A DNA stretch of 64,000 nucleotides, taken from NCBI RefSeq assembly GCF_041886205.1, contig NZ_CP169029.1; one strand, 5' to 3'. The stretch is from Escherichia coli. Lineage in GTDB: Bacteria > Pseudomonadota > Gammaproteobacteria > Enterobacterales > Enterobacteriaceae. Positions 1 through 27,100 of the stretch are shown here, piece after piece. The translations under genes were made by a program, and so were the position numbers. The notes under the pieces were generated by a model. It saw only the letters and a list, made by a program, of their open reading frames with translations. It did not search any database and was not told the origin of the DNA. The stretch's first letter is position 1; each line of letters starts with the position of its first letter.

Positions 1-1642
1 GACCTGTTTTCGGATTACGGTAACGATTTTCTGTGCCAAAACTCCCCATTCCGTGCCCCATCTGCAGGTTATTAATGCAGCCAAAGCTGGCGTTATCAAA
101 CAGCAGAATGGTGACCTTAATTCCCTCCTGTACGGCAGTTTGCAGCTCTGAGTGCAGCATCATGTACGAACCATCGCCTACCATGGCATACACCGGCTGC
201 TGAGGTTTTGCCAGCTTCGCACCAATAGCCGCTGCGACCTCATACCCCATGCAGGAGTAACCATACTCCAGATGGTAACTGTCAGGCGTTTTAACCTGCC
301 AGAGGCGTTGCAAATCCCCTGGCAGCGATCCGGCCGCCCCCACCACAATGGCGTTATCCTCAATATGCTGGTTAATGAGCCCCAACACCCGCGTCTGGGT
401 CAGGTGTGTGTTGAGCGTTTCACCGTATTCCATTAGCTGTGCATCAAGGTGCCCTGCCACTTCGGGAACGTCGTCAGGATGCCACTGGCGTTCCCACAGT
501 CGACAGCATTCATCGTGCCAAGCGGATTTCGCATGGGCAATCGCCTCCCCCCAGCCACTACGATAATCTTTCAGTGCGTGGGTCAACGCTGTCAGACCAG
601 TTCGGGCATCGGCAATGAGCGCGGTGGCATCCAGCTTCAAGGAGTCAAACTCAGCCACGTTCAGCAGCAGGAACTCGACGTCGGGATGAGAAAAGAGCGC
701 CTTAGAGCCGGTAGTAAAATCCGTCAGGCGCGTGCCGATGCCAATCACTAAGTCAGCCTGCGGCGCAAGCTGGTTGGCAGCCATTCCGCCCGTCACGCCC
801 ACCCCGCCCAGATTAAGCGGGTGGTCACTTACCAGCGCCCCCTTACCGGCCTGGGTTTCGGCAAACGGCAATTGCAGCACTTCAACAAATTCCCGTAACG
901 CCTCATGCGCACCGGAGTAACGCACGCCACCGCCGCACACCACCAGTGGACGGCGCTTGCGGGAAATCAATGCATGAGCCTGCGCCAGTCGCTGCGGGTC
1001 AGGCGGACGGCGTTCAATATGATGCACCCGACGCGCAAAGAAACTCAGGGGGTAATCCCAGGCCTCCCCCTGCACATCCTGAGGTAGGCAAATGGTCACC
1101 GCCCCTGTATTTGCGGGGTCAGTAAGCGTTCGCATCGCACTTAACATCGCGCTCATAAGCTGTTCAGGACGGTTGATGCGGTCCCAGTAGCGGGAAACCG
1201 GGCGGAAGCAATCGTTGGTACTGATGCTGAGATCGTGATACTGCTCGATCTGCTGCAACACGGGGTCAGGCTGGCGGCAGGCGTAGATATCCCCTGGCAG
1301 TAGCAGCAGTGGAATGCGGTTCGCCGTGGCCGTCGCTGCCGCCGTCACCATATTGGCAGCGCCAGGCCCAACGGATGAGGTGACAGCAAAAATACGCTGA
1401 CGGCGATGCTGTTTGGCGAATCCCGTCGCCATATGGGCAATCCCCTGCTCGTTACAGCCTTGCATCACCTGCAGATGACCAGGATCCTGCTCCAGCGCCT
1501 GGCCGATACCGAGCACGTTACCGTGCCCAAAGATCGTTGCCACGCCCTCCACAAAGGGCGTTTCTTTACCATCAACGCTAACATATTGTTGGTTAAGAAA
1601 TCTGACCAGAGCCTGGGCCATAGTCATACGTTCGGTTTGCAT
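1..1642 (-). CDS. iolD: ThDP-dependent IolD-like enzyme (3D-(3,5/4)-trihydroxycyclohexane-1,2-dione hydrolase family); partial, 3' end lies beyond window start
   Basis: Manual minus-strand translation from ATG at 1640-1642 gives [50 protein letters not shown]..., a ThDP-enzyme N-terminal domain; SD agggggtttt upstream; start abuts iolA stop. Confidence 0.65.
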
Positions 1643-1653
1643 AAAACCCCCTG

Positions 1654-3159
1654 TCAGCCCAGAGTCGGCATGGAGAACGCTGCACCTGTCTCCTGCTGCA
1701 TTTCCGGCCAGCGTGCAGTGATGGTTTTCATTCGGGTGTAGAAACGCACGCCATCGTTCCCGTGAACATTGAGCGCGCCAAAAATGGAACGTTTCCAGCC
1801 ACCGAAACAGTGGAATGCCATTGGCACCGGGATCGGCACGTTGACCCCCACCATACCCGCCTGCACCTCTTCACAAAAGCGGCGTGCGCAGCCACCGTCA
1901 CGGGTGAAAATGGCCGAGCCATTACCATATTCGTGTCGGTTAATCAGATCCACCGCGCTGGCGTAATCTGCTACGCGCACCACAGAAAGCACCGGTCCGA
2001 AAATTTCTTCTTTATAGATGGTCATCTCCGGGGTGACGTTATCGAACAGAGTCGGCCCAACGAAATAGCCCTGCTCGTGCCCTTTCACGCTGAGGCCACG
2101 CCCGTCCACACGCAGGTTAGCCCCCTGAGCTTCGCCACTGTCGATATAGCCCAACACTTTGCTGCGGTGTGCGGCGGAGATCAGCGGCCCCATCTCGTTT
2201 TCTGGCGTCTGGTTCAGGCCAGGTCCGACGCGCAGCGAAGCGATCTTTTTTTCCAGCCGGGCGCAGAGTTCATCAGCCGTTTTATCGCCAACCGCCACCA
2301 CCACGGAAAGCGCCATGCAGCGTTCTCCTGCCGCACCATAAGCTGCGCCCATTATGGCGTTTGTCGCCATATCCATATCGGCATCCGGCATTAAAATGCA
2401 GTGGTTTTTCGCACCGCCGAGCGCCTGACAGCGCTTACCGTGGGCGGACGCAGTCAGGTACATGTATTCGGCAATCGGTGTTGAACCGACAAAACTGACG
2501 GCCTGCACGCGCGGGTCGGTCAGGAGCACATCAACGGATTCTTTATCGCCCTGCACCACGTTGAATACGCCGTCCGGCAGGCCTGCCTCTTTCAGCAGTT
2601 TCGCCAGCGCGAGCGCCAGAGACGGATCTTTTTCCGACGGTTTCAGCACGAAGGTGTTGCCTGTCGCCAGAGCTATCGGGAACATCCACATTGGCACCAT
2701 CGCCGGGAAGTTAAACGGCGTGATCCCGGCGCAGACCCCGAGCGGCTGCATCAGTGAGTGGCTGTCGACACCTGTGCCAACGTTCGCAGAGTGTTCGCCT
2801 TTTTGCAGATGTGGGATGCCGCAGGCGAATTCTACCACTTCCAGACCACGGGTCAGTTCACCTACTGCATCTGAGAAGACCTTACCGTGTTCTTCACTGA
2901 TAATACGGGCCAGACGCACCATATTCTCTTCAAGCAACGCTTTGAAGCGGAACATCACACGCGCGCGCTTGAGTGGAGCAAAACGTGCCCACGCGGGAAA
3001 CGCCAACTGTGCTGCGGCAATCGCCTGTTCGGTTTCCTGTGCCGTACTCATCACCACCTGGCGAATCTGCTCGCCAGTGGCCGGGTTGAAGATAGCCTGA
3101 ATGCGCTGGCCTGAACCGGTGACACATTCGCCGTGAATAAAATTCGCTACCGTCTCCAT
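1654..3159 (-). CDS. iolA: CoA-acylating (methyl)malonate-semialdehyde dehydrogenase
   Basis: 501-aa ORF; ALDH-family hallmarks (VLKPSEKDP, catalytic Cys in GERCMALS); directly upstream of iolD-like gene. Confidence 0.8.
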
Positions 3160-3449
3160 CCTTAACCTCTCGCTGTTGATACGTGACTGTTACCTGAACG
3201 TTATGTACTGAACACTATATATGAAACAAATATTCCATTTTAAGTTGAAATAAAATAAATAATGATTATTGTGATCAAGGATGGATTTTTATGTGAACAG
3301 CCAGCATCACTGACTCAGCCTGAGCTATTAGGAGTTTCGGGCGAGGAAATGACTGAAGCTTCTGTTTCATTTTTGCTGCCAGGTGGATGGCCAACATTTA
3401 AAAGACGCGGTTTTGCGTTTAGAATCATGAGACTGGATAGGGGGATAAC

Positions 3450-4310
3450 ATGACGACAGCAACCAGCCTGAACGAACTACAAAAGCAAATCCGCGATCGC
3501 TACGATAGCCTGAGCAAAAGGCTGCAGCAGGTCTCCCGCTATGTACTGGATAATACGAACAGTGTCGCGTTTGATACGGTTGCGGTCATAGCCGAACGTG
3601 CCGATGTTCCACCCTCTACACTGATTCGTTTTGCCAATGCCTTTGACTTCACCGGCTTCAACGAAATGAAACAGTTATTTCGTATGCACCTGGTGGAGGA
3701 AACCGCCAGCTACAGCGATCGTGCGCGACTGTTCCGCGAAATGGAGAGCGAAGCCGTACCTGAAACGCCGCTCGATATTTTGCAGGAGTTCGCCAGTTCG
3801 AACTCGCAGGCGCTGCAGCAGTTGGCTGCCCGCGCCGAACCGGAGATGCTGGAGCACGCCGTACAACTACTGGCCTACGCCGACACCATTTACATCGCCG
3901 GATTACGCAGATCCTTTAGCATTGCTGCTTATCTTACCTATGCTTTAAGCCACCTAGAGTGCCGCCCTATTCTGCTTGACGGGATGGGCGGCATGCTGCG
4001 CGAACAGATCAGCCGTATTAAGGCGTGCGACATTGTGGTGTCGATCAGTTTCTCGCCGTACGCGGAAGAAACGGTGATGGTCAGCAAAACCGCCGCCAGC
4101 GTCGGCGCTCGGCAGATTGTGATTACGGATAGCCAGATCAGCCCACTGGCAACGTTCAGTGATCTCTGCTTTGTGGTGAAAGAGGCTCAGGTGGACGCAT
4201 TTCGGTCTCAGTCGGCAACATTGTGTCTGGTGCAGTCGTTAGTGGTCGCGCTAGCTTACCGTTTAGGAGATAAAAAACATAATAATACCCAGGAAAACAG
4301 TAACCAATAA
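3450..4310 (+). CDS. RpiR/MurR-family transcriptional regulator (IolR-like repressor candidate)
   Basis: 286-aa ORF, N-terminal HTH and C-terminal SIS-type sugar-phosphate-binding region; divergent from the iol catabolic genes. Confidence 0.75.
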   Translation: MTTATSLNELQKQIRDRYDSLSKRLQQVSRYVLDNTNSVAFDTVAVIAERADVPPSTLIRFANAFDFTGFNEMKQLFRMHLVEETASYSDRARLFREMESEAVPETPLDILQEFASSNSQALQQLAARAEPEMLEHAVQLLAYADTIYIAGLRRSFSIAAYLTYALSHLECRPILLDGMGGMLREQISRIKACDIVVSISFSPYAEETVMVSKTAASVGARQIVITDSQISPLATFSDLCFVVKEAQVDAFRSQSATLCLVQSLVVALAYRLGDKKHNNTQENSNQ

Positions 4311-4505
4311 TAACCAATGAACTCCTCCCCCGAGTCCATATAAGAGTAAATGATTCGGTGCCAGTAGCGATACAGACTTCAGATTGAATATCAACTGTAC
4401 TGCTATCTCCCTAAAAGGTCATGCCCCATGTGAGCGTACAACGAGAGCCTTAATCCTTAATAGCGAAGAAGATTTCTCTAGTAGGTGGTAATGTAACCCA
4501 GATAT

Positions 4506-4898
4506 AACGGCTTCTTTAAACAGTTTATTTACCATCGTTTTCTTACCTAGCAGGCGCTGAAGTTCTTTAATTTTATTCATGGCGGCAGCAAGTTCAGAGG
4601 CCGGAATACCCTGTTCTTCGGCTGTCACAGTAGTGAAGCTTCCTTCAAGGTAATGATACGCCAGAGAAATAACTGGCTGGCAGCCACACCGTGTTGCCGG
4701 GCAACAAGGGAGACCGTCATTCCCGGTTCAAAACTCTGCTGAACAATAGCGATCTTTTCCTGTGTAGTACGCCGTCTGCGTTTCTCCGGTCCTAAGACAT
4801 CAATCATCTGCTCTCCAATGACTAGTCTAAAAACTAGTATTAAGACTATCACTTATTTAAGTGATACTGGTTGTCTGGAGATTCAGGGGGCCAGTCTA
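4506..4898 (-). mobile_element. insC: IS2 remnant (IRL plus degenerate, frameshifted insC/orfA; insD deleted)
   Basis: Reverse complement of 4869-4898 reads TAGACTGGCCCCCTGAATCTCCAGACAACC (IS2 left IR); ORFs 4625..4852 and 4419..4628 together match IS2 InsC ([49 protein letters not shown]... [23 protein letters not shown]) with a frameshift; similarity stops near 4506. Confidence 0.75.
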
Positions 4899-4900
4899 TA

Positions 4901-5115
4901 CACTACCTCAGGTAGATGATGAGATCAGATACAGGGATCAACTGACGGTGAGCGCAGGCCCGCGAGTGCCCTGATTTAGCGCTGGTTTTGCTTTCCCATC
5001 GAAGGGCCCATACATCATCACGCCCGCGAAACAGTCGACAAAATAACGCAACTTTCTCATCCGTGGATAATACGGAAACGCACTGCACAGGACTCTGCGG
5101 TTTACGTCACCATTC
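4901..5115 (-). pseudogene. N-terminal fragment of an unidentified island gene, cut off at the IS2 end
   Basis: Minus-strand ORF ...VQCVSVLSTDEKVALFCRLFRGRDDVWALRWESKTSAKSGHSRAC... ends with a stop 3 nt before the IS2 IRL; second frame ORF 4938..5132 overlaps. Confidence 0.3.
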
Positions 5116-5328
5116 AATCCCATAAGCTTCAAGTTATGTTTGCCCTCAGTGCAGCTAATTCATCACTGTCAGATTTATGAACCATAGTCGTTACCTGTAT
5201 CCGATCCACTGAGGCACCACGGCAGAAATTCGGGTCCCCTACACTGATGACAAAGCCGCCCTCTTCTGCCTATTAACTCAAGCACCTCCCAACAACTTAC
5301 AGAAACTTAATCCTAATACAACTGTAAT

Positions 5329-5892
5329 TCAGTTGTGTCGTGGTCGGCCGCGGTTGCTTTTTTCGGGAAGCCTGCTACGGCCCAGAATAATACCGTGTTC
5401 TTTCTGATCCTGTTTAGCCAGATAGCTAAGGGCGTAACGTAAGTTGTCTACCGCGGACTTATCACTATAGTGCATCACGTGATCGATACGCACCGGGTAT
5501 TTGTCTTTAGCCCGGCAAAGGTGAAAGTAACCCTCCCCTTCCGTGATCTGCCTCCAGATATCTCCCAGTTGCCTGGATATCTGATAAGAGTTCTTGTGAC
5601 GTTGCCCATCCAGGTAGCCGACAAAATGAATATGAAGCCCTTTGTTTTGTGTATATTCCATTACCCAGTAATATCCCGCCAACATCGATTGGGTTTCGCT
5701 AAGTAAGCGGTATATTTCCATACACATACTGTGCTTACAGCCATGACCAAAACTGGGCGTGTCTTTCCTGTAGGCAAAATCAATTCTGAAAGGTAACAGT
5801 TTAGAAAAACGTTGAAACAGACCTTCCATGTGTTCATTCACGTCTTTCAGAATCATGAAGTCCATTTCGTAATTGGGATTAGCATTATACAT
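5329..5892 (-). CDS. YagK/YfjJ-family (inovirus Gp2-like) cryptic-prophage protein
   Basis: 187-aa ORF in same orientation as alpA and the split gene, matching CP4-57-type gene order (alpA - yfjI-like - yfjJ-like); family assignment from recalled sequence similarity only. Confidence 0.4.
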   Translation of the reverse strand: MYNANPNYEMDFMILKDVNEHMEGLFQRFSKLLPFRIDFAYRKDTPSFGHGCKHSMCMEIYRLLSETQSMLAGYYWVMEYTQNKGLHIHFVGYLDGQRHKNSYQISRQLGDIWRQITEGEGYFHLCRAKDKYPVRIDHVMHYSDKSAVDNLRYALSYLAKQDQKEHGIILGRSRLPEKSNRGRPRHN

Positions 5893-6858
5893 TTTATAGT
5901 CCTTACTTTATAAAACTGACAGGAAAGTGGAATTACATAAATACTGAGAGTACAGAAACGCCGTACCGCGGCATTAATAAACGAGGTAACCAGCAGCACA
6001 GACAACCTGATAAAACTGTTTCGTATTACCTCATTACAGTAATAGGGTAATGATTCAGAATACAGTAAGACTCTCTTAAACTGAGGACCAGAACGAATTA
6101 CAATAAAAAACACACCTCATATAATTGAGTTTAAGAAAGCACCATTCAATTACTTACAGGAAATAATCTGATCTTCACAAAAGTCAGCATTGAATAGCCA
6201 CAGGCAACATCGCTATTAGTATTGCCGTACCATTAAGTAAAAACAGAGACTCTGCAGAGAGAGCCTACAGATATTTAATCTCACAATAAGAAGATTATTT
6301 CATACAGAAAAGATTATATTTACCCATAAACTGTAACGGAGCTATAACGTACGAACTAAAGACAATATACTCTAATAGTGTTCTGGTACGTAACTAGTAT
6401 TAAATACAAACCAGACATACATTCAGTGGATTAACTTTCTCAATATTACGCTATAAGTGTAGTAACATAATTTACACATAACTAAACTCCATACACCACC
6501 ACACTGTAGTGTATGGAGATATATGTATTACGCACATACAGAATACTTAGCATAAAGAGGAGTGATATTACGATAGAAAGAGATAAGACAACATAACAGA
6601 TAACATAACTCCCATTAATAATACTAATTAACCTAAATTATTTATTGAACACGAAAACAATGAAGGCCCCACCTCACCTCAGACTAAAGCCGACAATATC
6701 CTGAGCAACACTCTATCCAATAGTAAATAGTGGTTACACCAGTTATATTTACTGACTGACCTGTACCAGAGTTTTCTAATACAACGCTGACATGGTAAAG
6801 ACATTAGTCTCCTCCGCAAGTAGCAGAGGAGACTATATGTACTCAACGATTAAGTCGT

Positions 6859-10284: not shown

Positions 10285-10593
10285 TTATCTGCTCATGGTC
10301 ATATCTGAAGAAAGCGTATGTCGCACTTCGTCATTAACACCTTTGACTGCTGATCTGGCAGGTACAGTATGTAAAGTAAGCCATTCGTCAATAGCTGATG
10401 AACGCCAGCCCACAGAACCACTACCAAGACGTACCGGCCTGGGGAAGGTTGCATCGTAGTATTTCGATAACGGATTCATTTTTTCGTAAATTGTCGAACG
10501 AGATATACCTAACAATTGGCTCAGTTCAGGCATCCGTAAGATGCGTGAAGGAGTCCAGCAGTATCCGGATTGATCTGGCATTTTATCCCCCAT
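10285..10593 (-). CDS. alpA: AlpA-family phage/island HTH regulator (start codon uncertain; alternatives at 10581 or 10665)
   Basis: Contains ILRMPELSQLLGISRSTIYEKMNP...YDATFPRPVRLGSGSVGWRSSAIDEWL, matching the AlpA signature (YDATFP...SVGW...EIDEWL). Confidence 0.6.
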   Translation of the reverse strand: MGDKMPDQSGYCWTPSRILRMPELSQLLGISRSTIYEKMNPLSKYYDATFPRPVRLGSGSVGWRSSAIDEWLTLHTVPARSAVKGVNDEVRHTLSSDMTMSR

Positions 10594-10789
10594 AGTGTGG
10601 TGAACTGTCGTTACAGTTTGTATTCCCCGGGTAAATTTGTCTGCGTAAAAAAATGGGCTGAGCAAAAAGACAATAAATAATTAAAAATCAATACGATAGA
10701 AAACAACAGCATTATTGTTATTTTACTTTCACCTTATCGCTGTCGATTCTCATTATCATTCATTGGTAAAAAACAGCAAAAGAGGCCCT

Positions 10790-11553
10790 GGTAATGACTC
10801 CAGTCAGTAGTACAGTGTTTTCGACAAATGAACCAATGGCTTTTCGTGAATTTCCAGGGAGCGTGAAAAGCAAATCGTTTTCCGGGCTGGTCGTTTGATG
10901 TGAGTACGAAGTGTCAGATTGTTGCACTCAATGCGCCGGGTAAATATCTTGCCGACAAGATGCTTATCCTGTGGCATTTCTCTGGTATAACTGCTCCGGT
11001 TGTCTCTGGTTATCATGCCTGTGGAGAATGGCTTCAGGAGTTCCGGCAACTCACGACATGTTTCATCAGTGCGAGGACCAAAAGTGTAAGCCAGCACACC
11101 TCCAGATTTGGTGTTATACGCATACCAGTGCCACTGCTGACGAGCTTTGTTTTCGACAAAACTCCATTGTTCATCAAGTTCGCAGATAAGCGTCACATCG
11201 GCACTGGCGACTGGAGATGTGGTTACTTTGCGTGGTGAGCGTTTTATAAAGTGAGAATGACGGTGTTGATATCCACCTTCAGCGTTCTGGAACTATCGCG
11301 AACCCCGACTCCGTTATGAACCATTTCAACAATTTGCTCTTTAATGCCTGGTTTTCGGGTTTCGTAGATGTAATTCAGTTGAAATACACACGTTTGCAGG
11401 ATTAGCACTGGAAACGCTCATGATCTGAGGTGCTGTGATCATAATGGTACACTTTATAGGAATTACAGCTGGGAGAATGTACTGTAACTGTTGCCATATG
11501 GTCTCCAGATACCAATAGAATACCACATTAATCTATCGTCAGAAGGCATCACC
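10790..11553 (-). mobile_element. Degenerate IS1-family element (764 bp; insA frameshifted, insB N-terminal region degenerate)
   Basis: Terminus GGTAATGACTCC at 10790; ORF 10804..11196 matches IS1 InsB C-terminal half (QWHWYAYNTKSGGVLAYTFGPRTDETCREL...KTICFSRSLEIHEK); manual translation upstream gives InsA-like MATVTVHSPSCNSYKVY... then, after a frameshift, LNYIYETRKPGIKEQIVEMVHNGVGVRDSSRTLKVDINTVILTL; other terminus ...GCATCACC at 11546-11553. Confidence 0.65.
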
Positions 11554-11693
11554 GGGGCCTTCTGACATAATCTGTTAATACGTGTACTATTACCCTGTTC
11601 AGAAAATATTGATTCAAAAATGAAAACCAGTTAACAGAAAAGCAAAATGATATAATGTTAAAATTTTATATAGTGCAATAAAAGGAGAATGTT

Positions 11694-13511
11694 ATGTATA
11701 ATTTTATCACTATAATGTATGATGTCTTTTCATGTTTTGGTGTTCTGGCTAAAAACCAGAATACCCGTGACATCCGAAATATTAAAAATTTTTCCTCACA
11801 TCAATATTCACTGGGCGACATGTTTGATGAATTAATAAACATTATTGATAAAGAACAAGTATTGAGTACAGAACAACGAAAAGTTATATTTAGGAGATAT
11901 GAAGATCTCTATGTTAAGCTAATGCACTATTCTGTTTTTACAGACCAAACACATCAAATAATAAAACAAAAATATTTTAATGACATTGTACCAATGATTC
12001 TCGCACTCGACATCAGGAACACATATCGCCCGGATAATGAGATGGCATTTTACTATCATATTCATTCTTTTCTCACTCAGATACCGGATAATGAGGATGA
12101 TATATATCATGCTGCAAGGACATATCTGCGAAATTACGTTAAGTTATGTTTATCCGGATACACACCAGCGAATGCGCATTTCAAAGATATCTTTGATGGC
12201 GTATATGAATTCATTCGTAATATTCGCAAAAACAGTACACCAGGAAAAACAAAACTTATCGCAACTATCAACACATGCAAAGAAACCTGTAAACATCTGC
12301 TTTATTTAAGTAATGAAGACAAGGAAAAAATAATTTCTGACTTAGATAAAGTTCAGGTTGCATGTTATTATCTCACTATATTACTGGCTTTCGAAAGACG
12401 AACTTCATTAACAAGCACCCTGGCAACTTTATATAAAATGCTGATAAGCGAAAGAGAAGTTTCAGAATATGAATGCCAGTTATTATATTTAACCAACCCA
12501 ATAGATGTAATGAATATACTGAACAAATACATATATTACTTTCCTAATGAAAACTCACCATTTTATACACTGAAAATTGACAGTGCATTATCGTGGGATG
12601 CCATTGACGCAATACGAGACTATAGTATTTCTGATATTTATCTTTATCCTGAACAAAAAACAATAAATTGTGTCGTTGAGATTGAAAACATTGTCTTTGG
12701 CGGTTACATTTATACATTGAACAACGGCGTCACATTACAAAACATAGAAAACACTTTAAAAGATTCTTCATGCCATTATGTCTTAAATGGCTATACAGAA
12801 TTTGTTAACTGTTTGATACAACTTACTTCAGGAAAGACTGAAAGTGTTCATCGCACCATCAATAAACTGAACTATGAGAAATTACCTTTTGGATTTATCA
12901 TTGCCGCGTTTGCTATACTAAAGATAGCATTTAAAATAAAATTCAGTAAAAATCATGTAAATATCCGAGCATTATTAAATGACATCAATTATTTTATGAC
13001 TTATCAGGGCGAGTCCATTAACCTTATTTCACTGGATCACGAATACCCAGAGTCCTGTCTTCAAAATGACACAAACACATATTTATTAGGAAGAGTAATA
13101 TTTCTGTATAACTCAATGATTTATAAGTTCATAAACTGTCAGGAACATGAAACCAATAACATTCACTCAGCTATGATAAATAACCTATTACAGGAAGTTG
13201 ATATAGCCCTTGGTAAAATAAATAACATTATAGACAGCAGAAACATATCAGCCCCCCATGAACTGGCAAATATTCTTACCCGCGAAAAAATACTTACAAC
13301 ACGGGAAAAAAAAGGAAACCTGATAAGCCTGTTTGATGGATTCACTTTATTCCATTGTGTTGGAATGATAACCTTTCTTATCCATTATCTCAGAACACCT
13401 GAAGAAAAAGTTGAAAATATATTTATGTTATATGGTGCAGATAAAAACAATAAACTACGCAGAAGACTGATTTATGACGCACTAGGAATAATTCAGTCTC
13501 AGCAGGAGTGA
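11694..13511 (+). CDS. Hypothetical 605-aa protein, AT-rich cargo gene in the int-alpA hotspot; no recognisable catalytic motif
   Basis: Long uninterrupted ORF in very AT-rich DNA; SD aaaggaga 5 nt upstream of ATG; TATAAT at 11651-11656; convergent with integrase. Confidence 0.7.
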   Translation: MYNFITIMYDVFSCFGVLAKNQNTRDIRNIKNFSSHQYSLGDMFDELINIIDKEQVLSTEQRKVIFRRYEDLYVKLMHYSVFTDQTHQIIKQKYFNDIVPMILALDIRNTYRPDNEMAFYYHIHSFLTQIPDNEDDIYHAARTYLRNYVKLCLSGYTPANAHFKDIFDGVYEFIRNIRKNSTPGKTKLIATINTCKETCKHLLYLSNEDKEKIISDLDKVQVACYYLTILLAFERRTSLTSTLATLYKMLISEREVSEYECQLLYLTNPIDVMNILNKYIYYFPNENSPFYTLKIDSALSWDAIDAIRDYSISDIYLYPEQKTINCVVEIENIVFGGYIYTLNNGVTLQNIENTLKDSSCHYVLNGYTEFVNCLIQLTSGKTESVHRTINKLNYEKLPFGFIIAAFAILKIAFKIKFSKNHVNIRALLNDINYFMTYQGESINLISLDHEYPESCLQNDTNTYLLGRVIFLYNSMIYKFINCQEHETNNIHSAMINNLLQEVDIALGKINNIIDSRNISAPHELANILTREKILTTREKKGNLISLFDGFTLFHCVGMITFLIHYLRTPEEKVENIFMLYGADKNNKLRRRLIYDALGIIQSQQE

Positions 13512-13698
13512 AACGTTAAAACAGGCAAATTGTTTTTTATAAATAGGAGATTGTTGAGTAATCCCCTGTTTATAAAAATACGCTTTCCTGACGATCTGAT
13601 AATTATCAGCTCAATACATTTGACATAAAAGCGGTTCCTTAATTACTACTGCCACGATCACATATCAAATCATGATCGTACAATATACATTTTCACTA

Positions 13699-14901
13699 TT
13701 ATTTATTCACAATTTGAGACATCACATAATCCGCCCATGCCTGCATCATCGGTACACGCTGCTCCAGTAGATCAGTACGATGATATGCCGCCTCAACCTT
13801 ATTTTTCAGCGTATGAGCGAGCGCCCTTTCCGCCAGATCCCGCGAATACCCCTGTTCACTACACCAGTCCCTGAATGTTGAGCGAAAACCATGTGCCGTG
13901 GCAACTCGCCCCGGAATGTCACTGACGGCTTTCTTTTTACGCAGAAAACTTGTCAACACCATATCGGAAAGGATCTGCTGCTTTCTGGGTGAAGGGAACA
14001 CCAGTTCATCATGCAGGCCACGTATATTTTCCAGAATGTAAATAGCCTGCCGGGATAAAGGAACACGATGCTGTAGCCTGGCTTTCATTCTTTCTGCAGG
14101 TATAGTCCATACCCGCTTATGAAAATCAATTTCAGCCCAGCGCATTCCCCTGGCTTCGCCCGAGCGAGTTGCTGTAAGTATCACCATTAATAACAGTGCG
14201 CGGGTAACATTATAAGGTTCATCACTATACACACTGGTCGCCACAAAAAGCGGTAACTGCCTCCAGGGCATTGCTGGTTGGTGTTCATCACGTCCTCTTG
14301 TCTGCTGAGGAAGCAAATGGTCAACCACATCAACAGGATTTGCCACACAAAAACCGTGCGCCCATCCCCACTGCATAACAACATGAATGCGCTGTTTAAC
14401 CCGGCTTGCCGTTTCTGACAAGGTTAACCAGACTGGACGCAGTGTTTCTGCCACGTCCGCAGCCGTAATCGAATCCAGCGTTTTTGCTCCCAGTTGAGGA
14501 AACGCGTAATTCTCAAGCGTCGATAACCACTGCCTTACATGCTTTGGATTTTCCCATCCTGGAGACAATTCTGCATGTACACGCCTGGCTGCATCGGCAA
14601 ATGTTGGGATAACGACTTTCTCAGATTCAGCCTTTTTAATCTCCAGAGGATCATCACCTGCAGCAAGTTGCTCTCGCATTATCCGGGCAGTACGTGCAGC
14701 TTCAGCAATACTGACCTCTGGGTAAGTTCCCAATCCAGCATTACGTCTTTTTTGTGTCACCGGACTTACATAACGAAAAACCCATTTCCCCCGCCCCTTT
14801 ACTGAAGAAGGATGAAGGGTCAGTCCGGTAATTCCCCCATGGGGCAATGGTTTGTCATCAGGTTTGATATGTCTTGCTTTCGTATCCGTCAATACTGCCA
14901 T
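13699..14901 (-). CDS. int: Tyrosine site-specific integrase, P4/CP4-57 IntA-like
   Basis: 400-aa ORF; N-terminal LTDTKARHIKP...FRYVSP arm-binding-type region and C-terminal catalytic motifs (HGFRSTFRDW, LAH, Y in EAAYHR). Confidence 0.9.
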   Translation of the reverse strand: MAVLTDTKARHIKPDDKPLPHGGITGLTLHPSSVKGRGKWVFRYVSPVTQKRRNAGLGTYPEVSIAEAARTARIMREQLAAGDDPLEIKKAESEKVVIPTFADAARRVHAELSPGWENPKHVRQWLSTLENYAFPQLGAKTLDSITAADVAETLRPVWLTLSETASRVKQRIHVVMQWGWAHGFCVANPVDVVDHLLPQQTRGRDEHQPAMPWRQLPLFVATSVYSDEPYNVTRALLLMVILTATRSGEARGMRWAEIDFHKRVWTIPAERMKARLQHRVPLSRQAIYILENIRGLHDELVFPSPRKQQILSDMVLTSFLRKKKAVSDIPGRVATAHGFRSTFRDWCSEQGYSRDLAERALAHTLKNKVEAAYHRTDLLEQRVPMMQAWADYVMSQIVNK

Positions 14902-15044
14902 ACGCTAATTCCCGTCACTCTGGTATGCCATCCAGTATGCCATTAGTCTCTCGCTTCACTAAGAATACATTAGATAATATCGGACAACAAAAAGTGTAAT
15001 ACATTGTTTATAATGAAATTATATAACACCCCTGGATTAAGTCA

Positions 15045-15525
15045 GATTTATTTCAGGCGGTCCCCCTCACCGCCATATTTAAAGAAGAGCTCGTACGAAA
15101 GTACGGGCTTTTTTTTCGTATATTGCACACACCGGGGGGATGAGAATCCCCGACCGGGGGTCGACAACTGGCGGCAGCCAGTTGGACAGACCGTGAACGC
15201 AGTGAGCGGGCTGCCCGCAGGGCGAGCGAAGCGAGTCAATCCCCCCCTCACCGCCATATTTAAAGAAGAGCTCGTACGAAAGTACGGGCTTTTTTTTTCG
15301 TATATTGCACACACCGGGGGGATGAGAATCCCCGACCGGGGGTCGACAACTGGCGACAGCCAGTTGGACAGACCGTGAACGCAGTGAGCGGGCTGCCCGC
15401 AGGGCGAGCGAAGCGAGTCAATCCCCCCCTCACCGCCATATTTAAAGAAGAGCTCGTACGAAAGTACGGGCTTTTTTTCGTGTATTGCACACACCGGGGG
15501 GATGAGAATCCCCGACCGGGATACT
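15045..15525. repeat. Tandem direct repeat array, unit about 181 bp, about 2.7 copies
   Basis: Units begin near 15061, 15241 and 15421 with near-identical sequence; each has a terminator-like hairpin plus T-run (gagctcgtacgaaagtacgggcttttttt) and hairpins GGGGAT-GAGA-ATCCCC and CAACTGGC-N4-GCCAGTTG (loop differs between copies, stem conserved). Confidence 0.9.
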
Positions 15526-15528
15526 TAG

Positions 15529-16215
15529 TTAATGCAACGGTTCACTCTTTGTCGCCGCGACTAATGGGCGAATTTTGTCACGAGTCTCCCAGACCGGAGG
15601 GATTTCCTCCAATTTAGTGACAGAAGCTCGTACAAAAGGCACTCGTGCAAGAGTCATAATCGTATCCAACCAACGGTCACGAATAATGCGATCCGCCCTT
15701 TCATGACTCGGGTCATCCAGCTCAATAACACAGACTATTTTATTGTTCTTCTTTGAAACCAGAACATAATCCATTGCCATGCCATTATAAATTGCAAAGA
15801 AACGCTTTCTTTCTTCTTCGCTAAACTCAGGTTGTTCTGGATAGTTGAGCAAGCGCCCCAGAGAGACCTGGCAATGGATATGACAATAATGTCCAAACCA
15901 TTTCTCCAGATTATCGAAATACATTTTTTCACAACGCGTGATTAACCACTCTTTTCCTTCCAATAAAATACCTTCGGCAACCATTCCCTGAAATAACTCA
16001 TCTCGTTCTTGCCAACGAGAGTCACGATAGGTTTTCTGCGGTATATAGGTCCTTGTCGACGACTTAGCAGCAGGGGAAGTTGCAGATGAAGGGACTGGTT
16101 GCGATTTAGCGATGATTACCGATGAGGCAACTTTTCGGAGTGTCAATTTTCTGGCAACAGCAAAACCGGCGACAAATGCAATTGTCAAACAAGTTACAAA
16201 AGCCATAAAGCTCAT
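15529..16215 (-). CDS. Membrane-anchored protein with DUF2726-like (nuclease-fold) C-terminal domain
   Basis: 228-aa ORF: N-terminal hydrophobic helix, Ser/Pro-rich linker, C-terminal globular domain; family call from recalled similarity only. Confidence 0.45.
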   Translation of the reverse strand: MSFMAFVTCLTIAFVAGFAVARKLTLRKVASSVIIAKSQPVPSSATSPAAKSSTRTYIPQKTYRDSRWQERDELFQGMVAEGILLEGKEWLITRCEKMYFDNLEKWFGHYCHIHCQVSLGRLLNYPEQPEFSEEERKRFFAIYNGMAMDYVLVSKKNNKIVCVIELDDPSHERADRIIRDRWLDTIMTLARVPFVRASVTKLEEIPPVWETRDKIRPLVAATKSEPLH

Positions 16216-17729: not shown

Positions 17730-18017
17730 ACCGTTTGCGGCGTCGGTAACACGAGTAAAGAGAGGAAGTGAGAAAAATACAGAGTGACGAAGTTGCTACC
17801 GGAGGAGAAAACTCCGCGAGTGGTGGCGCGTTGATTATCTAAAACATGTCCAGTATAGGACGTTACCATCCGCGATCTCCATAGTGACTGACTATCACTG
17901 CCGGGAACTTCCGCTGCTACTTAATAAGTACAACAGATCTCGCATTTATTGCAACAATATATTTACTTATATTTAACTATAAAACACCATTTTAGTGACA
18001 TTAGTTTCTACTGGAAA

Positions 18018-18036
18018 GATGACAGAGTGATGACAG
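18018..18036 (-). promoter_or_regulatory. Pho box (PhoB site) in phoH promoter
   Basis: Reverse complement reads CTGTCATCACTCTGTCATC, two tandem CTGTCAT half-sites, about 150 nt upstream of the ATG at 17869. Confidence 0.6.
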
Positions 18037-18070
18037 TGATGAAAAAAGCTGTGTGCTTTCAGCAGGATTT

Positions 18071-18400
18071 GCATCAGGCATCAGTGCACGATCGCCGGAT
18101 GCGGCGTAAACGCCTTATCCAGCCTACCAAACCCGCACCGATTATAGGCATGATAAGACGCGCAAGCGTCGCATCAGGCATCAGTGCACGATCGCCGGAT
18201 GCGGCGTAAACGCCTTATCCAGCCTACCAAACCCGCACCGATTGTAGGCATGATAAGACGCGCAAGCGTCGCATCAGGCATCAGCGCACGAACGCCGGAT
18301 GCGGCATCAACGCCTTATCCCGCCTACCGAACCCGCACCGATTGTAGGCATGATAAGACGCGCAAGCGTCGCATCAGGCATCAGCGCACGAATGCCTTAT
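18071..18400. repeat. BIME/REP array (three units of about 110 bp containing GCCGGATGCGGCGTAAACGCCTTATCC)
   Basis: Three near-identical copies of canonical REP palindromes between phoH promoter and efeB. Confidence 0.85.
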
Positions 18401-18413
18401 TCGCCTAAAAACA

Positions 18414-19685
18414 TTAAACCCGCAATAACGCGCTTCCGAGATAATCATTCGCGTCCTTCACTCCCGGCAGCGCAAAAAAATAACCGCCGCCGATGGGTTT
18501 AACGTATTCCTCCAGCGCTTCGCCATTGAGCCTTTTTTGTACTGTCAGGAAGCCTTTTTCCAGATCGTGTTGGTAGCAGACAAACAGTAGCCCCATATCC
18601 AGTTGCCCGGAGTTGGTGACGCCCAGTGAATAACTGTAGCCACGACGCAGCATCAGGCTGGACTCACTCTCCGCCGTACGGGGATTCGCCAGCCGGATAT
18701 GGCTGTCCAGCGCGATCACCTTCCCTTCAGGGTCGCTGGCGTAATCAGGCACATCATGCTCATGCTGCATTCCCAGCGGCGCACCGGTTTGCTTATCACG
18801 GCCAAAAATCGTCTGCTGTTCTTTCAGCGGCGTTCTGTCCCAAAATTCCACTCGAAACTGAATCAAGCGTACTGCCTGATAGCTGCCACCAATTGTCCAC
18901 GCAGGCTCCTGCTGATCTGCCGTTACCCACACCACTTTTTGCATCAACTTATCATTCTGGCTATCGGGATTGGCAGTGCCGTCTTTGAAACCCAGCAAAT
19001 TAATCGGCGTCTCTTTGCCTTTACTACGCGCTGCGTGATCGGAAATAAACCCTTCCCGCTTCCAGCGCACACTGAGCAAATCCGGCGTGTGTTTGATGAT
19101 ATCGCGCAGCGCATGGATCACCGTGTCCTGGGTGTTGGCGCAAATTTGTAGCAACACATCACCATGACATAACGCCGCATCCAGCGAGTCGTTGGGGAAA
19201 CGCGTCATCTTCTGCAACTTTTTCGGCATCTGTGGCGCAAGGCCAAACCGCTCATCAAACAATGAGTGGCCCACCGATAACGTTATGGTGAGATTATCGG
19301 GCGCAATGTAGCCGCCAAGAATGCCGGAATCGAGTGGTGGCAGGCGCGGATTTGGCGTTTCTGGTGCCGCTCCGCCCTGAGTCAGAAAAGCAAAACGCTG
19401 AGTCAACAAGCGAAACAACCGTTCAAGATCGGCTTTATCGCTGGCAAGCACATCAAACGCCACCAGCATCATTGCGGCCTGTTGTGGCGTCAGGATCCCT
19501 GCCTGATGCTCACCATAAAACGGCTGTTTCTCATTGCGTGCATCCGGTGAAAGCGTGCCCGGTGCACTTTGCGTTTTTTGTGCATGAACGACCGGACAAC
19601 TTCCCGCCAGCGCCAGCGCACCAATCCCTTTCAGTAAACGTCGGCGTGACGGTTCATTCACGCCGTTTTCATCTTCATACTGCAT
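18414..19685 (-). CDS. efeB: Dye-decolorizing peroxidase EfeB (Tat-exported)
   Basis: 423-aa ORF with twin-arginine signal ([10 protein letters not shown]); conserved operon position. Confidence 0.9.
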
Positions 19686-19690
19686 AACGC

Positions 19691-20818
19691 TTAATCCAGT
19701 CCCAGCACACCGCGAAGTTGCGCCAGATCTTCCGCCAGCGCAGTAATCGGTCCTTTCAGTGCATTCCGGTCGGCATCGGTCAATTTGTCGTAGGTTTCAA
19801 AACCGTCTTTAGTACGGTATTTCGCCAGAATGGTATCGACCTTTTTAAAGTTGGCATCGACTTTTGCCAGCAGTTCCGGGTTGGCTTTTTGCAGTTGTGG
19901 ACGCAGCAAATCGACAATTTTCTGCGAGCCTTCAACGTTAGCCTGGAAATCCCACAGATCGGTGTGGCTGTAGCGATCTTCTTCACCGCTAATTTTGCTG
20001 GCTGCCACTTCCTCAATCAGTCCGGCTGCGCCGCCGACCACTTTTGAAGGTGGGAAAGCCAGTTCACTGATGCGTTTTTGCAAATCGACCACATCTGTAT
20101 AAAGCTGCTCAGCGTACTGATCCATCCCTTTGGTGGTGTTGTCGCCAAACAATGCTTTTTCCAGACGGTGGAAACCAGTGAATTTTGGGTCGGCGGCTTT
20201 TTGCTCGTAATCATCTTCACGGGCGTCAATGCTGCCATCCAGATCGGAGAACAGTTCAGCAATCGGTTCAATGCGCTCATAGTGCTGGCGCGTCGGCGCA
20301 TACAGTGCTTTCGCTTTTTCGATATCGCCAGCTTTAATCGCGTCGGTAAAGGCTTTGGTGTCGGTCACCAGCTGCGTGGTTTCCGCCATGACATACGCTT
20401 TATATGCAGTAATTGCACCACCAAGACTTAACAGCGCATCACTTTGCGCCGCATCCGCCGTTGCCTCACCTTTGACGATCAACTTCCCTTTCGGGTTAGT
20501 CAGCAGACCGCAGGTCATATCGTATTCGCCAGGCTGTAAATTCGCCGTCATTTTCTGGCTAAAACCAGGGGCGATATTTTCCCGCTCTTCCACCACCATC
20601 ACGCCTTTGAGGATCTCCCACTCCAGCGCCTTCTGGCTATGGTTCTGAATAATGAACTGTGTTTTCCCGGCGTTAACCGTAATGGTCATCGGTTCGCACT
20701 GCTTATCCGTCACGGTCACTTTGACCTGCGGCACATCAGCGGCGTTAGCCATAAAAGCAGAAGAAAACAGCGCAGCCACGCTCAACTGCAATGCGTTACG
20801 GCGGAAGTTAATGGTCAT
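19691..20818 (-). CDS. efeO: Periplasmic iron-binding protein EfeO
   Basis: 375-aa ORF with signal peptide; between efeU and efeB. Confidence 0.9.
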
Positions 20819-20875
20819 GACGAGACTATCCCTTTAAAGTATGTTGTAACTAAGCAAGAGTTTGCGTCGTATTTG

Positions 20876-21706
20876 TTACGCGGAGCGAGACGCTGTCGCC
20901 CCTGCGCGTGGTGGCAGAGCAAATGCCACCAGCGCCGGGATGAGATAAATAAACCAGACGGCGACTTCGCTGACGCTCGGCGCTTCCTGATAGCCAAAAA
21001 TCCCTTCCATCAGCGTGCCAAACAGCGAGTGAGTTGAGAGCACCGCACTCATATCGAAGGCGATTTCCTGAAAGTGGTTCCACAATCCGGCTTCATGAAA
21101 TGCGCGAATGGCACCAGCTGCCAGCCCTGCGGCGACGAAGAGAATAAACAGGCTGGTCCATTTAAAAAATGCACCAAGATTGAGGCGAATACCGCCCCAG
21201 TAGAGCAGGAAGCCTAGCACCACGGCAGTAGCAAGACCGAGCATTGCACCCAGCGGCGGCCAGATCCCGACATCTTGTTGAAATGCCGCCAGCAGGAAAA
21301 AGACCGACTCCAGCCCTTCCCTTGCAACGGCAAAAAAGACCATCATCACCAGCGCCCAGCCATGATGATTTCCACGCTGCAATGCGCTATCGACTGCCTG
21401 TTCCAGTTGCACTTTGACGTTGCGCGACACTTTGCGCATCCAGAAAACCATCCAGGTAAGGATCACCACGGCGATCACCGCCACGATACCTTCAAACAGT
21501 TCCTGTTCTTTTTGCGGAAATTCGCCGGTGGTTTCGTTAATGAAGATACCCAAGCCCAGGCACAACGCAGCGGCAAGCAACACGCCAATCCACATCACAC
21601 CAATCCATCGGCCTCGCTGGGTACGCTTAAGATAGCTGGCAATCAAACTGACAATCAGCGCGGCTTCAAGTCCTTCGCGCAACATAATGAGAAACGGAAC
21701 AAACAT
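20876..21706 (-). CDS. efeU: Ferrous iron permease EfeU (intact)
   Basis: 276-aa polytopic membrane ORF from MFVPFLIMLREGLEA...; REGLE motifs present. Confidence 0.85.
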   Translation of the reverse strand: MFVPFLIMLREGLEAALIVSLIASYLKRTQRGRWIGVMWIGVLLAAALCLGLGIFINETTGEFPQKEQELFEGIVAVIAVVILTWMVFWMRKVSRNVKVQLEQAVDSALQRGNHHGWALVMMVFFAVAREGLESVFFLLAAFQQDVGIWPPLGAMLGLATAVVLGFLLYWGGIRLNLGAFFKWTSLFILFVAAGLAAGAIRAFHEAGLWNHFQEIAFDMSAVLSTHSLFGTLMEGIFGYQEAPSVSEVAVWFIYLIPALVAFALPPRAGATASRSA

Positions 21707-21762
21707 GCCACCCACCCTTAAACGTTTTTCTGAGTCAATCTATGCAAAGAAAAGTAAATCGC

Positions 21763-21783
21763 AGTGATAGCGATTATCATTAC
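21763..21783 (-). promoter_or_regulatory. Candidate Fur box upstream of efeU
   Basis: TGATAGCGATTATCATTA resembles the GATAATGATAATCATTATC consensus; about 60 nt upstream of efeU start. Confidence 0.4.
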
Positions 21784-22248
21784 GGCAAAGAAAAACACAA
21801 GCGGAATGTTTATAAAATGATGTTGGAATGTAAACAAAGAGAGGTAATGCCAGGGGATATAAACGATTATTCCAGGGTAGAAAGATGGGATTGTTTGCAA
21901 AGAACCATGTGTTCTTGCCGGATGCCGCGTAAACGCCATATCCAGCCGACAAAACTGTCCAGACTCAATGCATCAGAGCTTCCATGTAAAACTGATAAGC
22001 GGGTGTATCAAGCAATTTCGTCCATCCGCGATTATCAAATCTAACTTTTTGCCCGGAACATAATAACAGCTCGGGTGTTGGTGGCGTCAAAATCGCTGAA
22101 GCGTTCCCCTAAGGCCGGGACAGCAGGGGGCGGCGGCGATTGGCCGCCCCCTGCGCGCTCCCTGCACCATTCAATTTATATGGCGAGGCACATTAAGGGA
22201 GCGCAACCCGCTGCTGAAGCCAAACAAAACCGCCGCAGGCTAAGTCCC

Positions 22249-23757
<1,509 letters not shown>

Positions 23758-23939
23758 CTAAAGTCTCCAAAAAATTATTATCGGCAATGTCGAAACTTGC
23801 CGTTATATCTGCCACCGGAACGGGGTAACAGAGTTTATGTTTTACCAGGGCGACCGTATCCTGCCGGAAGCGCTGGTTATTCACAATCGATTTAACACAC
23901 CATTTACATTAAATTTTAGTGCTCAGCGACACTATTTTT

Positions 23940-24155
23940 CATCAGGTTGCACTCTCTCACATTTTTTGCGGTTGCACCTTTCAAAAATGTTAACTGCCGC
24001 AGAGAAAAAGTCTGAGTTATTTTTTTAATCACTGTCATATCGATTTCTTTTATTAACATTTCATTCATTTTTAAGCTTGCTACGCAAGTCACATTTAACA
24101 TGGTTGCACAAAGTTGCAACATCATGGATATTTCACGATAACGTTAAGTTGCACC
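23940..24155. promoter_or_regulatory. put control region with repeated GTTGCA PutA operator motifs
   Basis: At least five GTTGCA motifs in the putP-putA intergenic region. Confidence 0.6.
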
Positions 24156-24179
24156 TTTCAGAACAACAGGAGTAATGGC

Positions 24180-27100
24180 ATGGGAACCACCACCATGGGG
24201 GTTAAGCTGGACGACGCGACGCGTGAGCGTATTAAGTCTGCCGCGACACGTATCGATCGCACGCCACACTGGTTAATTAAGCAGGCGATTTTTTCTTATC
24301 TCGAACAACTGGAAAACAGCGATACTCTGCCGGAGCTACCTGCGCTGCTTTCTGGCGCTGCCAATGAGAGCGATGAAGCACCGACTCCGGCAGAGGAACC
24401 ACACCAGCCATTCCTCGACTTTGCCGAGCAAATTTTGCCCCAGTCGGTTTCCCGCGCCGCGATCACCGCAGCCTATCGCCGCCCGGAAACCGAAGCGGTT
24501 TCTATGCTGCTGGAACAAGCCCGCCTGCCGCAGCCAGTTGCTGAACAGGCACACAAACTGGCGTATCAACTGGCCGATAAACTGCGTAATCAAAAAAATG
24601 CCAGTGGCCGCGCAGGTATGGTCCAGGGGTTATTGCAGGAGTTTTCGCTGTCATCGCAGGAAGGCGTGGCGCTGATGTGTCTGGCGGAAGCGTTGTTGCG
24701 TATTCCCGACAAAGCCACCCGTGATGCGTTAATTCGCGACAAAATCAGCAACGGTAACTGGCAGTCACACATTGGTCGTAGCCCGTCACTGTTTGTTAAT
24801 GCCGCTACCTGGGGGCTGTTGTTTACTGGCAAACTGGTTTCCACCCATAACGAAGCCAGCCTCTCCCGCTCGCTGAACCGCATTATCGGTAAGAGCGGTG
24901 AACCGCTGATCCGCAAAGGTGTGGATATGGCGATGCGCCTGATGGGCGAGCAGTTCGTCACTGGCGAAACCATTGCGGAAGCGTTAGCCAATGCCCGCAA
25001 GCTGGAAGAGAAAGGTTTCCGTTACTCTTACGATATGCTGGGCGAAGCCGCGCTGACCGCCGCAGATGCACAGGCGTATATGGTTTCCTATCAGCAGGCG
25101 ATTCACGCCATTGGTAAAGCGTCCAATGGTCGTGGCATCTATGAAGGTCCGGGCATTTCAATCAAGCTGTCGGCGCTGCATCCGCGTTACAGCCGCGCCC
25201 AGTATGACCGGGTAATGGAAGAGCTTTACCCACGTCTGAAATCACTCACCCTGCTGGCGCGTCAGTACGATATTGGTATCAACATTGACGCCGAAGAGGC
25301 CGATCGTCTGGAGATCTCCCTCGATCTGCTGGAAAAACTCTGTTTCGAGCCTGAGCTGGCAGGCTGGAACGGTATCGGTTTTGTTATTCAGGCTTATCAA
25401 AAACGCTGCCCACTGGTGATTGATTACCTGATTGATCTCGCCACCCGCAGCCGTCGCCGTCTGATGATTCGCCTGGTGAAAGGCGCGTACTGGGATAGTG
25501 AAATCAAGCGTGCGCAGATGGACGGCCTTGAAGGCTATCCGGTTTATACCCGCAAGGTGTATACCGACGTTTCATATCTCGCCTGTGCGAAAAAGCTGCT
25601 GGCGGTGCCGAATCTAATCTACCCGCAGTTCGCGACGCACAACGCCCATACGCTGGCAGCGATTTATCAACTGGCAGGTCAAAACTACTATCCGGGTCAG
25701 TACGAGTTCCAGTGCCTGCATGGTATGGGCGAGCCACTGTATGAGCAGGTCACCGGGAAAGTTGCCGACGGCAAACTTAACCGTCCGTGTCGTATTTATG
25801 CTCCGGTTGGCACACATGAAACGCTGCTGGCGTATCTGGTGCGTCGCCTGCTGGAAAACGGTGCTAACACCTCGTTTGTTAACCGTATTGCCGACACCTC
25901 TTTGCCACTGGATGAACTGGTCGCCGATCCGGTCACTGCTGTAGAAAAACTGGCGCAACAGGAAGGGCAAACTGGATTACCGCATCCGAAAATTCCCCTG
26001 CCGCGCGATCTTTACGGTCACGGGCGCGACAACTCGGCAGGGCTGGATCTCGCTAACGAACACCGGCTGGCCTCGCTCTCTTCTGCCCTGCTCAATAGTG
26101 CACTGCAAAAATGGCAGGCCTTGCCAATGCTGGAACAACCGGTAGCGGCAGGTGAGATGTCGCCCGTTATTAACCCTGCGGAACCGAAAGATATTGTGGG
26201 CTTTGTGCGTGAAGCCACGCCGCGTGAAGTAGAACAGGCGCTGGAAAGTGCGGTTAATAACGCGCCAATCTGGTTTGCCACTCCTCCGGCTGAACGCGCG
26301 GCAATTTTGCATCGCGCTGCCGTGCTGATGGAAAGCCAGATGCAGCAACTGATTGGTATTCTGGTGCGTGAAGCCGGAAAAACCTTCAGTAACGCCATTG
26401 CCGAAGTGCGCGAAGCGGTCGATTTTCTCCACTACTACGCCGGACAGGTGCGGGATGATTTCGCTAACGAAACCCATCGTCCATTAGGGCCTGTGGTATG
26501 TATCAGCCCGTGGAACTTCCCGCTGGCGATTTTCACCGGGCAGATCGCTGCCGCACTGGCGGCAGGTAACAGCGTACTGGCAAAACCGGCAGAACAAACG
26601 CCGCTGATTGCCGCGCAAGGGATCGCCATTTTGCTGGAAGCGGGTGTACCGCCAGGCGTGGTGCAATTGCTGCCAGGTCGGGGTGAAACCGTGGGCGCGC
26701 AACTGACGGGTGATGATCGCGTGCGCGGGGTGATGTTTACCGGTTCAACCGAAGTCGCTACGTTACTGCAGCGCAATATCGCCAGCCGCCTGGACGCTCA
26801 GGGTCGCCCTATTCCGCTCATCGCTGAAACCGGCGGCATGAACGCGATGATTGTCGATTCTTCAGCACTGACCGAACAAGTAGTAATAGATGTGCTGGCC
26901 TCGGCGTTCGACAGTGCGGGTCAGCGTTGTTCGGCACTGCGCGTGCTGTGCCTGCAAGATGAGATTGCCGACCACACGTTGAAAATGTTGCGCGGCGCAA
27001 TGGCCGAATGTCGGATGGGTAATCCGGGTCGCCTGACCACTGATATCGGTCCGGTGATTGATAGCGAAGCGAAAGCCAATATCGAGCGTCATATTCAGAC

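Follow-up and report, generated by a model that had tools for sequence, protein, structure and literature searches.

Iron permeases of the Ftr1p type (OFeT) are built of seven helices, with REXXE motifs in the first and the fourth transmembrane helix. The partner of Ftr1p is the multicopper oxidase Fet3p, a place taken in the bacterial system by EfeO and EfeB. As reportedly described by Grosse et al. in 2006 and by Cao et al. in 2007, EfeU is the permease of a low-pH iron transporter, EfeUOB.

The title of Cao et al. 2007 (Mol Microbiol 65:857, PMID 17627767) presents EfeUOB as acid-induced, CpxAR-regulated, cryptic in K-12 and functional in O157:H7, and a passage of PMC7549933 relies on that work to describe the system as cryptic in K-12, due to a frameshift, and functional in O157:H7. 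The same work is cited to the same effect in passages of PMC4746246 and PMC9600279, and an intact efe operon is mentioned for an ExPEC strain in PMC7549933. Regarding its control, Table 1 of PMC4746246 gives low iron and low pH as the inducing conditions of Efe, passages of PMC4145685 and PMC9600279 state that CpxR represses efeU, and PMC4145685 predicts, for an ExPEC O78 strain, a Fur box at efeU and names Fur and CpxR as the regulators of this gene.

The locus studied here lies in a 64,000-nt stretch of Escherichia coli DNA from contig NZ_CP169029.1 (the whole stretch is called the window below), and consists of efeUOB (ycdNOB) flanked by putP and phoH. When compared with the EfeU (YcdN) system of O157:H7 and Nissle 1917, the protein encoded in the window was found to be 100% identical to WP_000497942.1, the accession under which EfeU is annotated in both E. 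coli O157:H7 strain 7636 and strain VE-T9. The O157:H7 operon also has the same gene order and the same promoter-proximal sequence, including a Fur-like site, but between putP and efeU the O157:H7 sequence has an additional gene of 1344 nt, absent from the window. The K-12 efeU pseudogene (ycdN) has the same coding DNA as the window save one base. With Ftr1p of S. cerevisiae (OFeT, PF03239), the EfeU of the window shares a full-length FTR1 domain, two REXXE motifs and seven hydrophobic segments.

The efeUOB genes and their products

The three genes are read from the same strand in the order efeU-efeO-efeB, with gaps of 57 nt between efeU and efeO and of 5 nt between efeO and efeB. The features of the operon are the following:

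20876-21706, minus strand: efeU, 831 nt, 276 aa, predicted iron permease
21711-21719, 5-13 nt 5' of the efeU ATG: Shine-Dalgarno-like sequence AAGGGTGGG
19691-20818, minus strand: efeO, intact, 375 aa, periplasmic cupredoxin and imelysin (M75) protein
18414-19685, minus strand: efeB, intact, 423 aa, Tat-exported DyP-type haem peroxidase/deferrochelatase

An earlier note on this DNA, made from the sequence alone, had described efeU as one uninterrupted open reading frame, and its coordinates proved to be exact: a single frame runs from the ATG that begins at 21706 to the TAA whose last base is 20876, with no internal stop. With a GTG in frame at 21715, 9 nt before the ATG, the maximal open reading frame reaches 279 aa; RefSeq relatives have the gene annotated from the ATG. 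The protein scored 331.2 bits against the NCBIfam EfeU equivalog NF041756 (cut-off 255), 351.7 bits against TIGR00145 (cut-off 303.8) and 300.3 bits (E = 1.8e-89) against Pfam FTR1 PF03239 (residues 1-275), with NF041756 and PF03239 both matched along their full lengths, and because of these scores the frame cannot be taken for a chance one.

Two REGLE motifs of the REXXE type were detected in EfeU, at residues 10-14 and 129-133, each of them inside a hydrophobic peak (residues 5-23 and 119-138) that corresponds to the first and the fourth helix of the hydropathy profile. In total, the Kyte-Doolittle profile has seven peaks that reach 1.59 or more (5-23, 38-56, 70-88, 119-138, 152-170, 185-203 and 248-266), together with one further weak peak of 1.17, so that the assignment of seven helices is one made from hydropathy only. 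A search by sequence among solved structures found no relatives of EfeU. From its sequence, the product of efeU is predicted to be an inner-membrane iron permease of the FTR1/OFeT type.

The other two products were also assigned, both with scores above the equivalog cut-offs. EfeO (NCBIfam PRK10378, 772 bits) has the Pfam domains Cupredoxin_1 and Peptidase_M75, is identical to the O157:H7 protein at 374 of its 375 residues and has a near-identical solved structure, 7wgu. EfeB (TIGR01412, 617 bits) shares 419 of its 423 residues with the O157:H7 protein, shows a twin-arginine motif, SRRRLLKG, at residues 13-20, and is near-identical to the solved structures 2y4f and 3o72.

With regard to the neighbourhood, rutR-putA-putP-efeUOB-phoH is the usual chromosomal order, as annotated in the closest relative, a 24-kb match with 98.6% identity. 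The maximal open reading frame of putA in the window (24114, TTG start) encodes 1342 aa, compared with 3963 nt and 1320 aa annotated in that relative. Between efeB and phoH, directly 3' of efeB, there is a REP-type array of about four units with 100-nt spacing (18035-18420), two of which score above the gathering threshold of the Rfam family naRNA4 (RF02564), with 81 and 68 bits. Beyond phoH, the annotation of the closest relative (positions 286-6216, aligned to about 10300-16200 of the window) includes a tyrosine integrase, an RtT sRNA, a regulator of the AlpA family, a DUF2726 gene and a degraded IS1, and this stretch looks like an integrated island.

The K-12 deletion and the distribution of intact efeU

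The same earlier note had claimed that efeU is intact here, unlike the K-12 allele, and had proposed its alignment to the K-12 and O157 genes as the way to check it. In this alignment, efeU of MG1655 showed a 1-nt gap with respect to the window at column 306, and a comparison by script of both coding sequences located the first difference at nt 107, the other 830 nt being identical. The position affected is the following:

21600-21601, minus strand: GG dinucleotide of codon Gly36 (nt 106-107 of the coding sequence); one G is lost in K-12, both are present in the window

Because one of these two Gs is missing, the K-12 frame encodes only 36 residues before it stops, the remainder of the protein carrying on in another frame, and RefSeq gives the MG1655 gene, 830 nt long, as a "frameshifted" pseudogene. 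This one-G deletion is the sole difference between both coding sequences, in full agreement with the claim, and an internal frameshift that the first inspection could have missed is thereby excluded.

As the whole difference from K-12 amounts to one base in a dinucleotide run, an error of sequencing or assembly at this short run of Gs could in principle have concealed a K-12 type lesion in the strain. This we consider extremely improbable. The window and K-12 share 99.7% identity over 1601 nt of the locus, with SNPs besides the indel, one of them (alignment column 54) being the only difference in the 200 nt 5' of efeU, and because of these differences the window does not come from a K-12 derivative. 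Moreover, the 62-mer of the window around the GG site was found exactly in 3637 independent complete genomes of the 5379 searched, O157:H7 included. Most genomes without an exact copy differ by a SNP, as in the case of Nissle 1917.

The frequency of the K-12 allele was also studied. For this, a 61-mer across the deletion was used as query against the 5379 complete genomes with a threshold of at least 99% match, which at such a length means an exact one. The frameshift allele was rare, with 368 of the 5379 genomes carrying it, and the 60 carriers among the matches listed were without exception laboratory strains or lines evolved in the laboratory, most of them bearing the names of K-12 derivatives (MG1655, DH5alpha, DH1, C600, J53 and others). 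Thus, an intact efeU is the norm of the species and K-12 is the exception, and the condition is not special to the present strain. The assignment of an intact locus is correct but ordinary, and was already known, as it matches Cao et al. 2007.

The fact that a single deleted G is the only difference in 830 nt suggests that efeU was inactivated very recently in K-12, possibly only within the K-12 lineage or during its domestication, in such a way that the allele of the window would be approximately the ancestral one and a one-base repair would restore the gene. We hold this reading to be evenly balanced between right and wrong; if true, it would slightly refine what is known and would not amount to a new system.

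The Fur-like site and the upstream region

The region upstream of efeU was searched for regulatory elements. The Fur consensus used was the 19-bp GATAATGATAATCATTATC, and the elements retained were the following:

21766-21784, minus strand (that of efeU): Fur-box-like sequence CGTAATGATAATCGCTATC, 15 of 19 positions matching the consensus, centred about 70 nt 5' of the ATG
21744-21758, plus strand: CpxR-box-like sequence GCAAAGAAAAGTAAA, 1 mismatch from GTAAA-N5-GTAAA, located between the Fur-like site and the start codon

The site that the earlier note had pointed out upstream of efeU as resembling a Fur box is thus present, although the consensus gave no match at up to 3 mismatches. When 4 mismatches were allowed, two sites were detected in the 64-kb window, compared with 0.19 expected from shuffled sequences. 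The site (alignment columns 123-141) and all the sequence from it to the ATG of efeU are the same in the window, K-12, O157:H7 and VE-T9, and over the promoter-proximal 130 nt the window does not differ from K-12, with O157:H7 being near-identical there. Further 5' of efeU (columns 1-72) the O157:H7 sequence diverges completely. Across 5425 genomes, the matches start at the end of putP, or only at position 21871 or 21809 of the window (query positions 430 and 492), and because all these starting points lie where they do, the shared core retains the Fur-like site.

A match at only 15 of 19 positions, which fails the 3-mismatch threshold, could also have arisen by chance in an AT-rich intergenic region, without any part in iron control, and a site of equal quality actually exists in another AT-rich spacer of the window, among neighbours with no obvious link to iron. 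We regard such a coincidence as unlikely, given the 0.19 sites expected per window, the position of the site within the block that is still shared where the upstream sequence of O157:H7 diverges, and the published data, as Fur regulation of efeU is reported in a passage of PMC4746246 and the Fur box is predicted there in the passage of PMC4145685 mentioned above. A role of the site in iron control is therefore the reading that we prefer. The second site, GATCACAATAATCATTATT (3258-3276, 15 of 19), may be due to chance; it is flanked by divergent genes, one similar to methylmalonate-semialdehyde dehydrogenases (1654-3159, minus strand) and one for a regulator of the RpiR/MurR family (3450-4310, plus strand).

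A terminator-like hairpin was also detected at 21757-21775; because it overlaps the dyad of the Fur box, it was not read as a terminator and is taken as a by-product of a palindromic operator. With respect to CpxR, its pattern was found 7 times compared with 4.0 expected, which is not above chance, and the box at 21744-21758 is listed only because of the published repression of efeU by CpxR.

A scan with the sigma-70 consensus between 18300 and 22300 yielded no promoter at the thresholds used. By eye, a weak candidate can be proposed, with TTGTGT at 21795-21800 and GATAAT at 21773-21778 separated by a 16-nt spacer, which would place the -10 element inside the Fur box. The result of the scan, together with the 4 residues in EfeB and the 1 residue in EfeO that differ from O157:H7, would fit a system with an open efeU frame that is nevertheless non-functional because of a defect elsewhere, be it in these substitutions, in the promoter or in Tat export. 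Such a defect seems to us very unlikely, since EfeU is the same as in O157:H7, whose operon is reported as functional (Cao 2007, as cited in a passage of PMC7549933), the 130 nt next to the gene are those shared with K-12 and, nearly so, with O157:H7, and EfeU, EfeO and EfeB are all far above the curated equivalog cut-offs. A functional system is thus the interpretation maintained below.

The spacer between putP and efeU (21809-22248) is polymorphic in E. coli. In around one third of the genomes, the homology to the window does not reach further 5' than about 21871 or 21809, a short distance 5' of the Fur-like site, and in O157:H7 the extra gene in this spacer is annotated as "hypothetical protein" (WP_001247490.1; region 3641-6313 of the compared record). 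A solitary REP-like element (21911-21955), about 210 nt 5' of efeU in the window, shares 90% identity with units of the array 3' of efeB and matches naRNA4 weakly, with 28.5 bits. In the Rfam scan of 18000-24300 no sRNA or riboswitch was found in the efeU leader, the only matches being REP-derived naRNA4. An open reading frame of 73 aa (21718-21939), 5' of efeU, overlaps the promoter and the REP element, and is unannotated in the four related records inspected.

Proposed function and regulation

On the basis of the literature and of the identity with the O157:H7 proteins, we infer that the strain's EfeUOB would be active in transport, controlled by Fur and CpxR, and specialised for low pH. A seven-helix EfeU, a periplasmic EfeO and the Tat-exported haem peroxidase EfeB would together import iron, mainly under acidic, iron-poor and aerobic conditions. 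Fe2+-Fur bound at the Fur box upstream of the ATG would repress the transcription of efeUOB, and CpxR would repress it at higher pH. That the window carries an ordinary wild-type efeUOB, with iron import as deduced from identity and literature and with Fur/CpxR control as expected, appears to us nearly certain.

Beyond correct annotation, the importance of this locus is small: from its sequence, a working EfeUOB route of iron uptake is to be expected in this strain, as in most E. coli, under acidic, iron-limited conditions. The exceptional character of the K-12 efeU is worth recalling when the physiology of K-12 is extrapolated to natural isolates.
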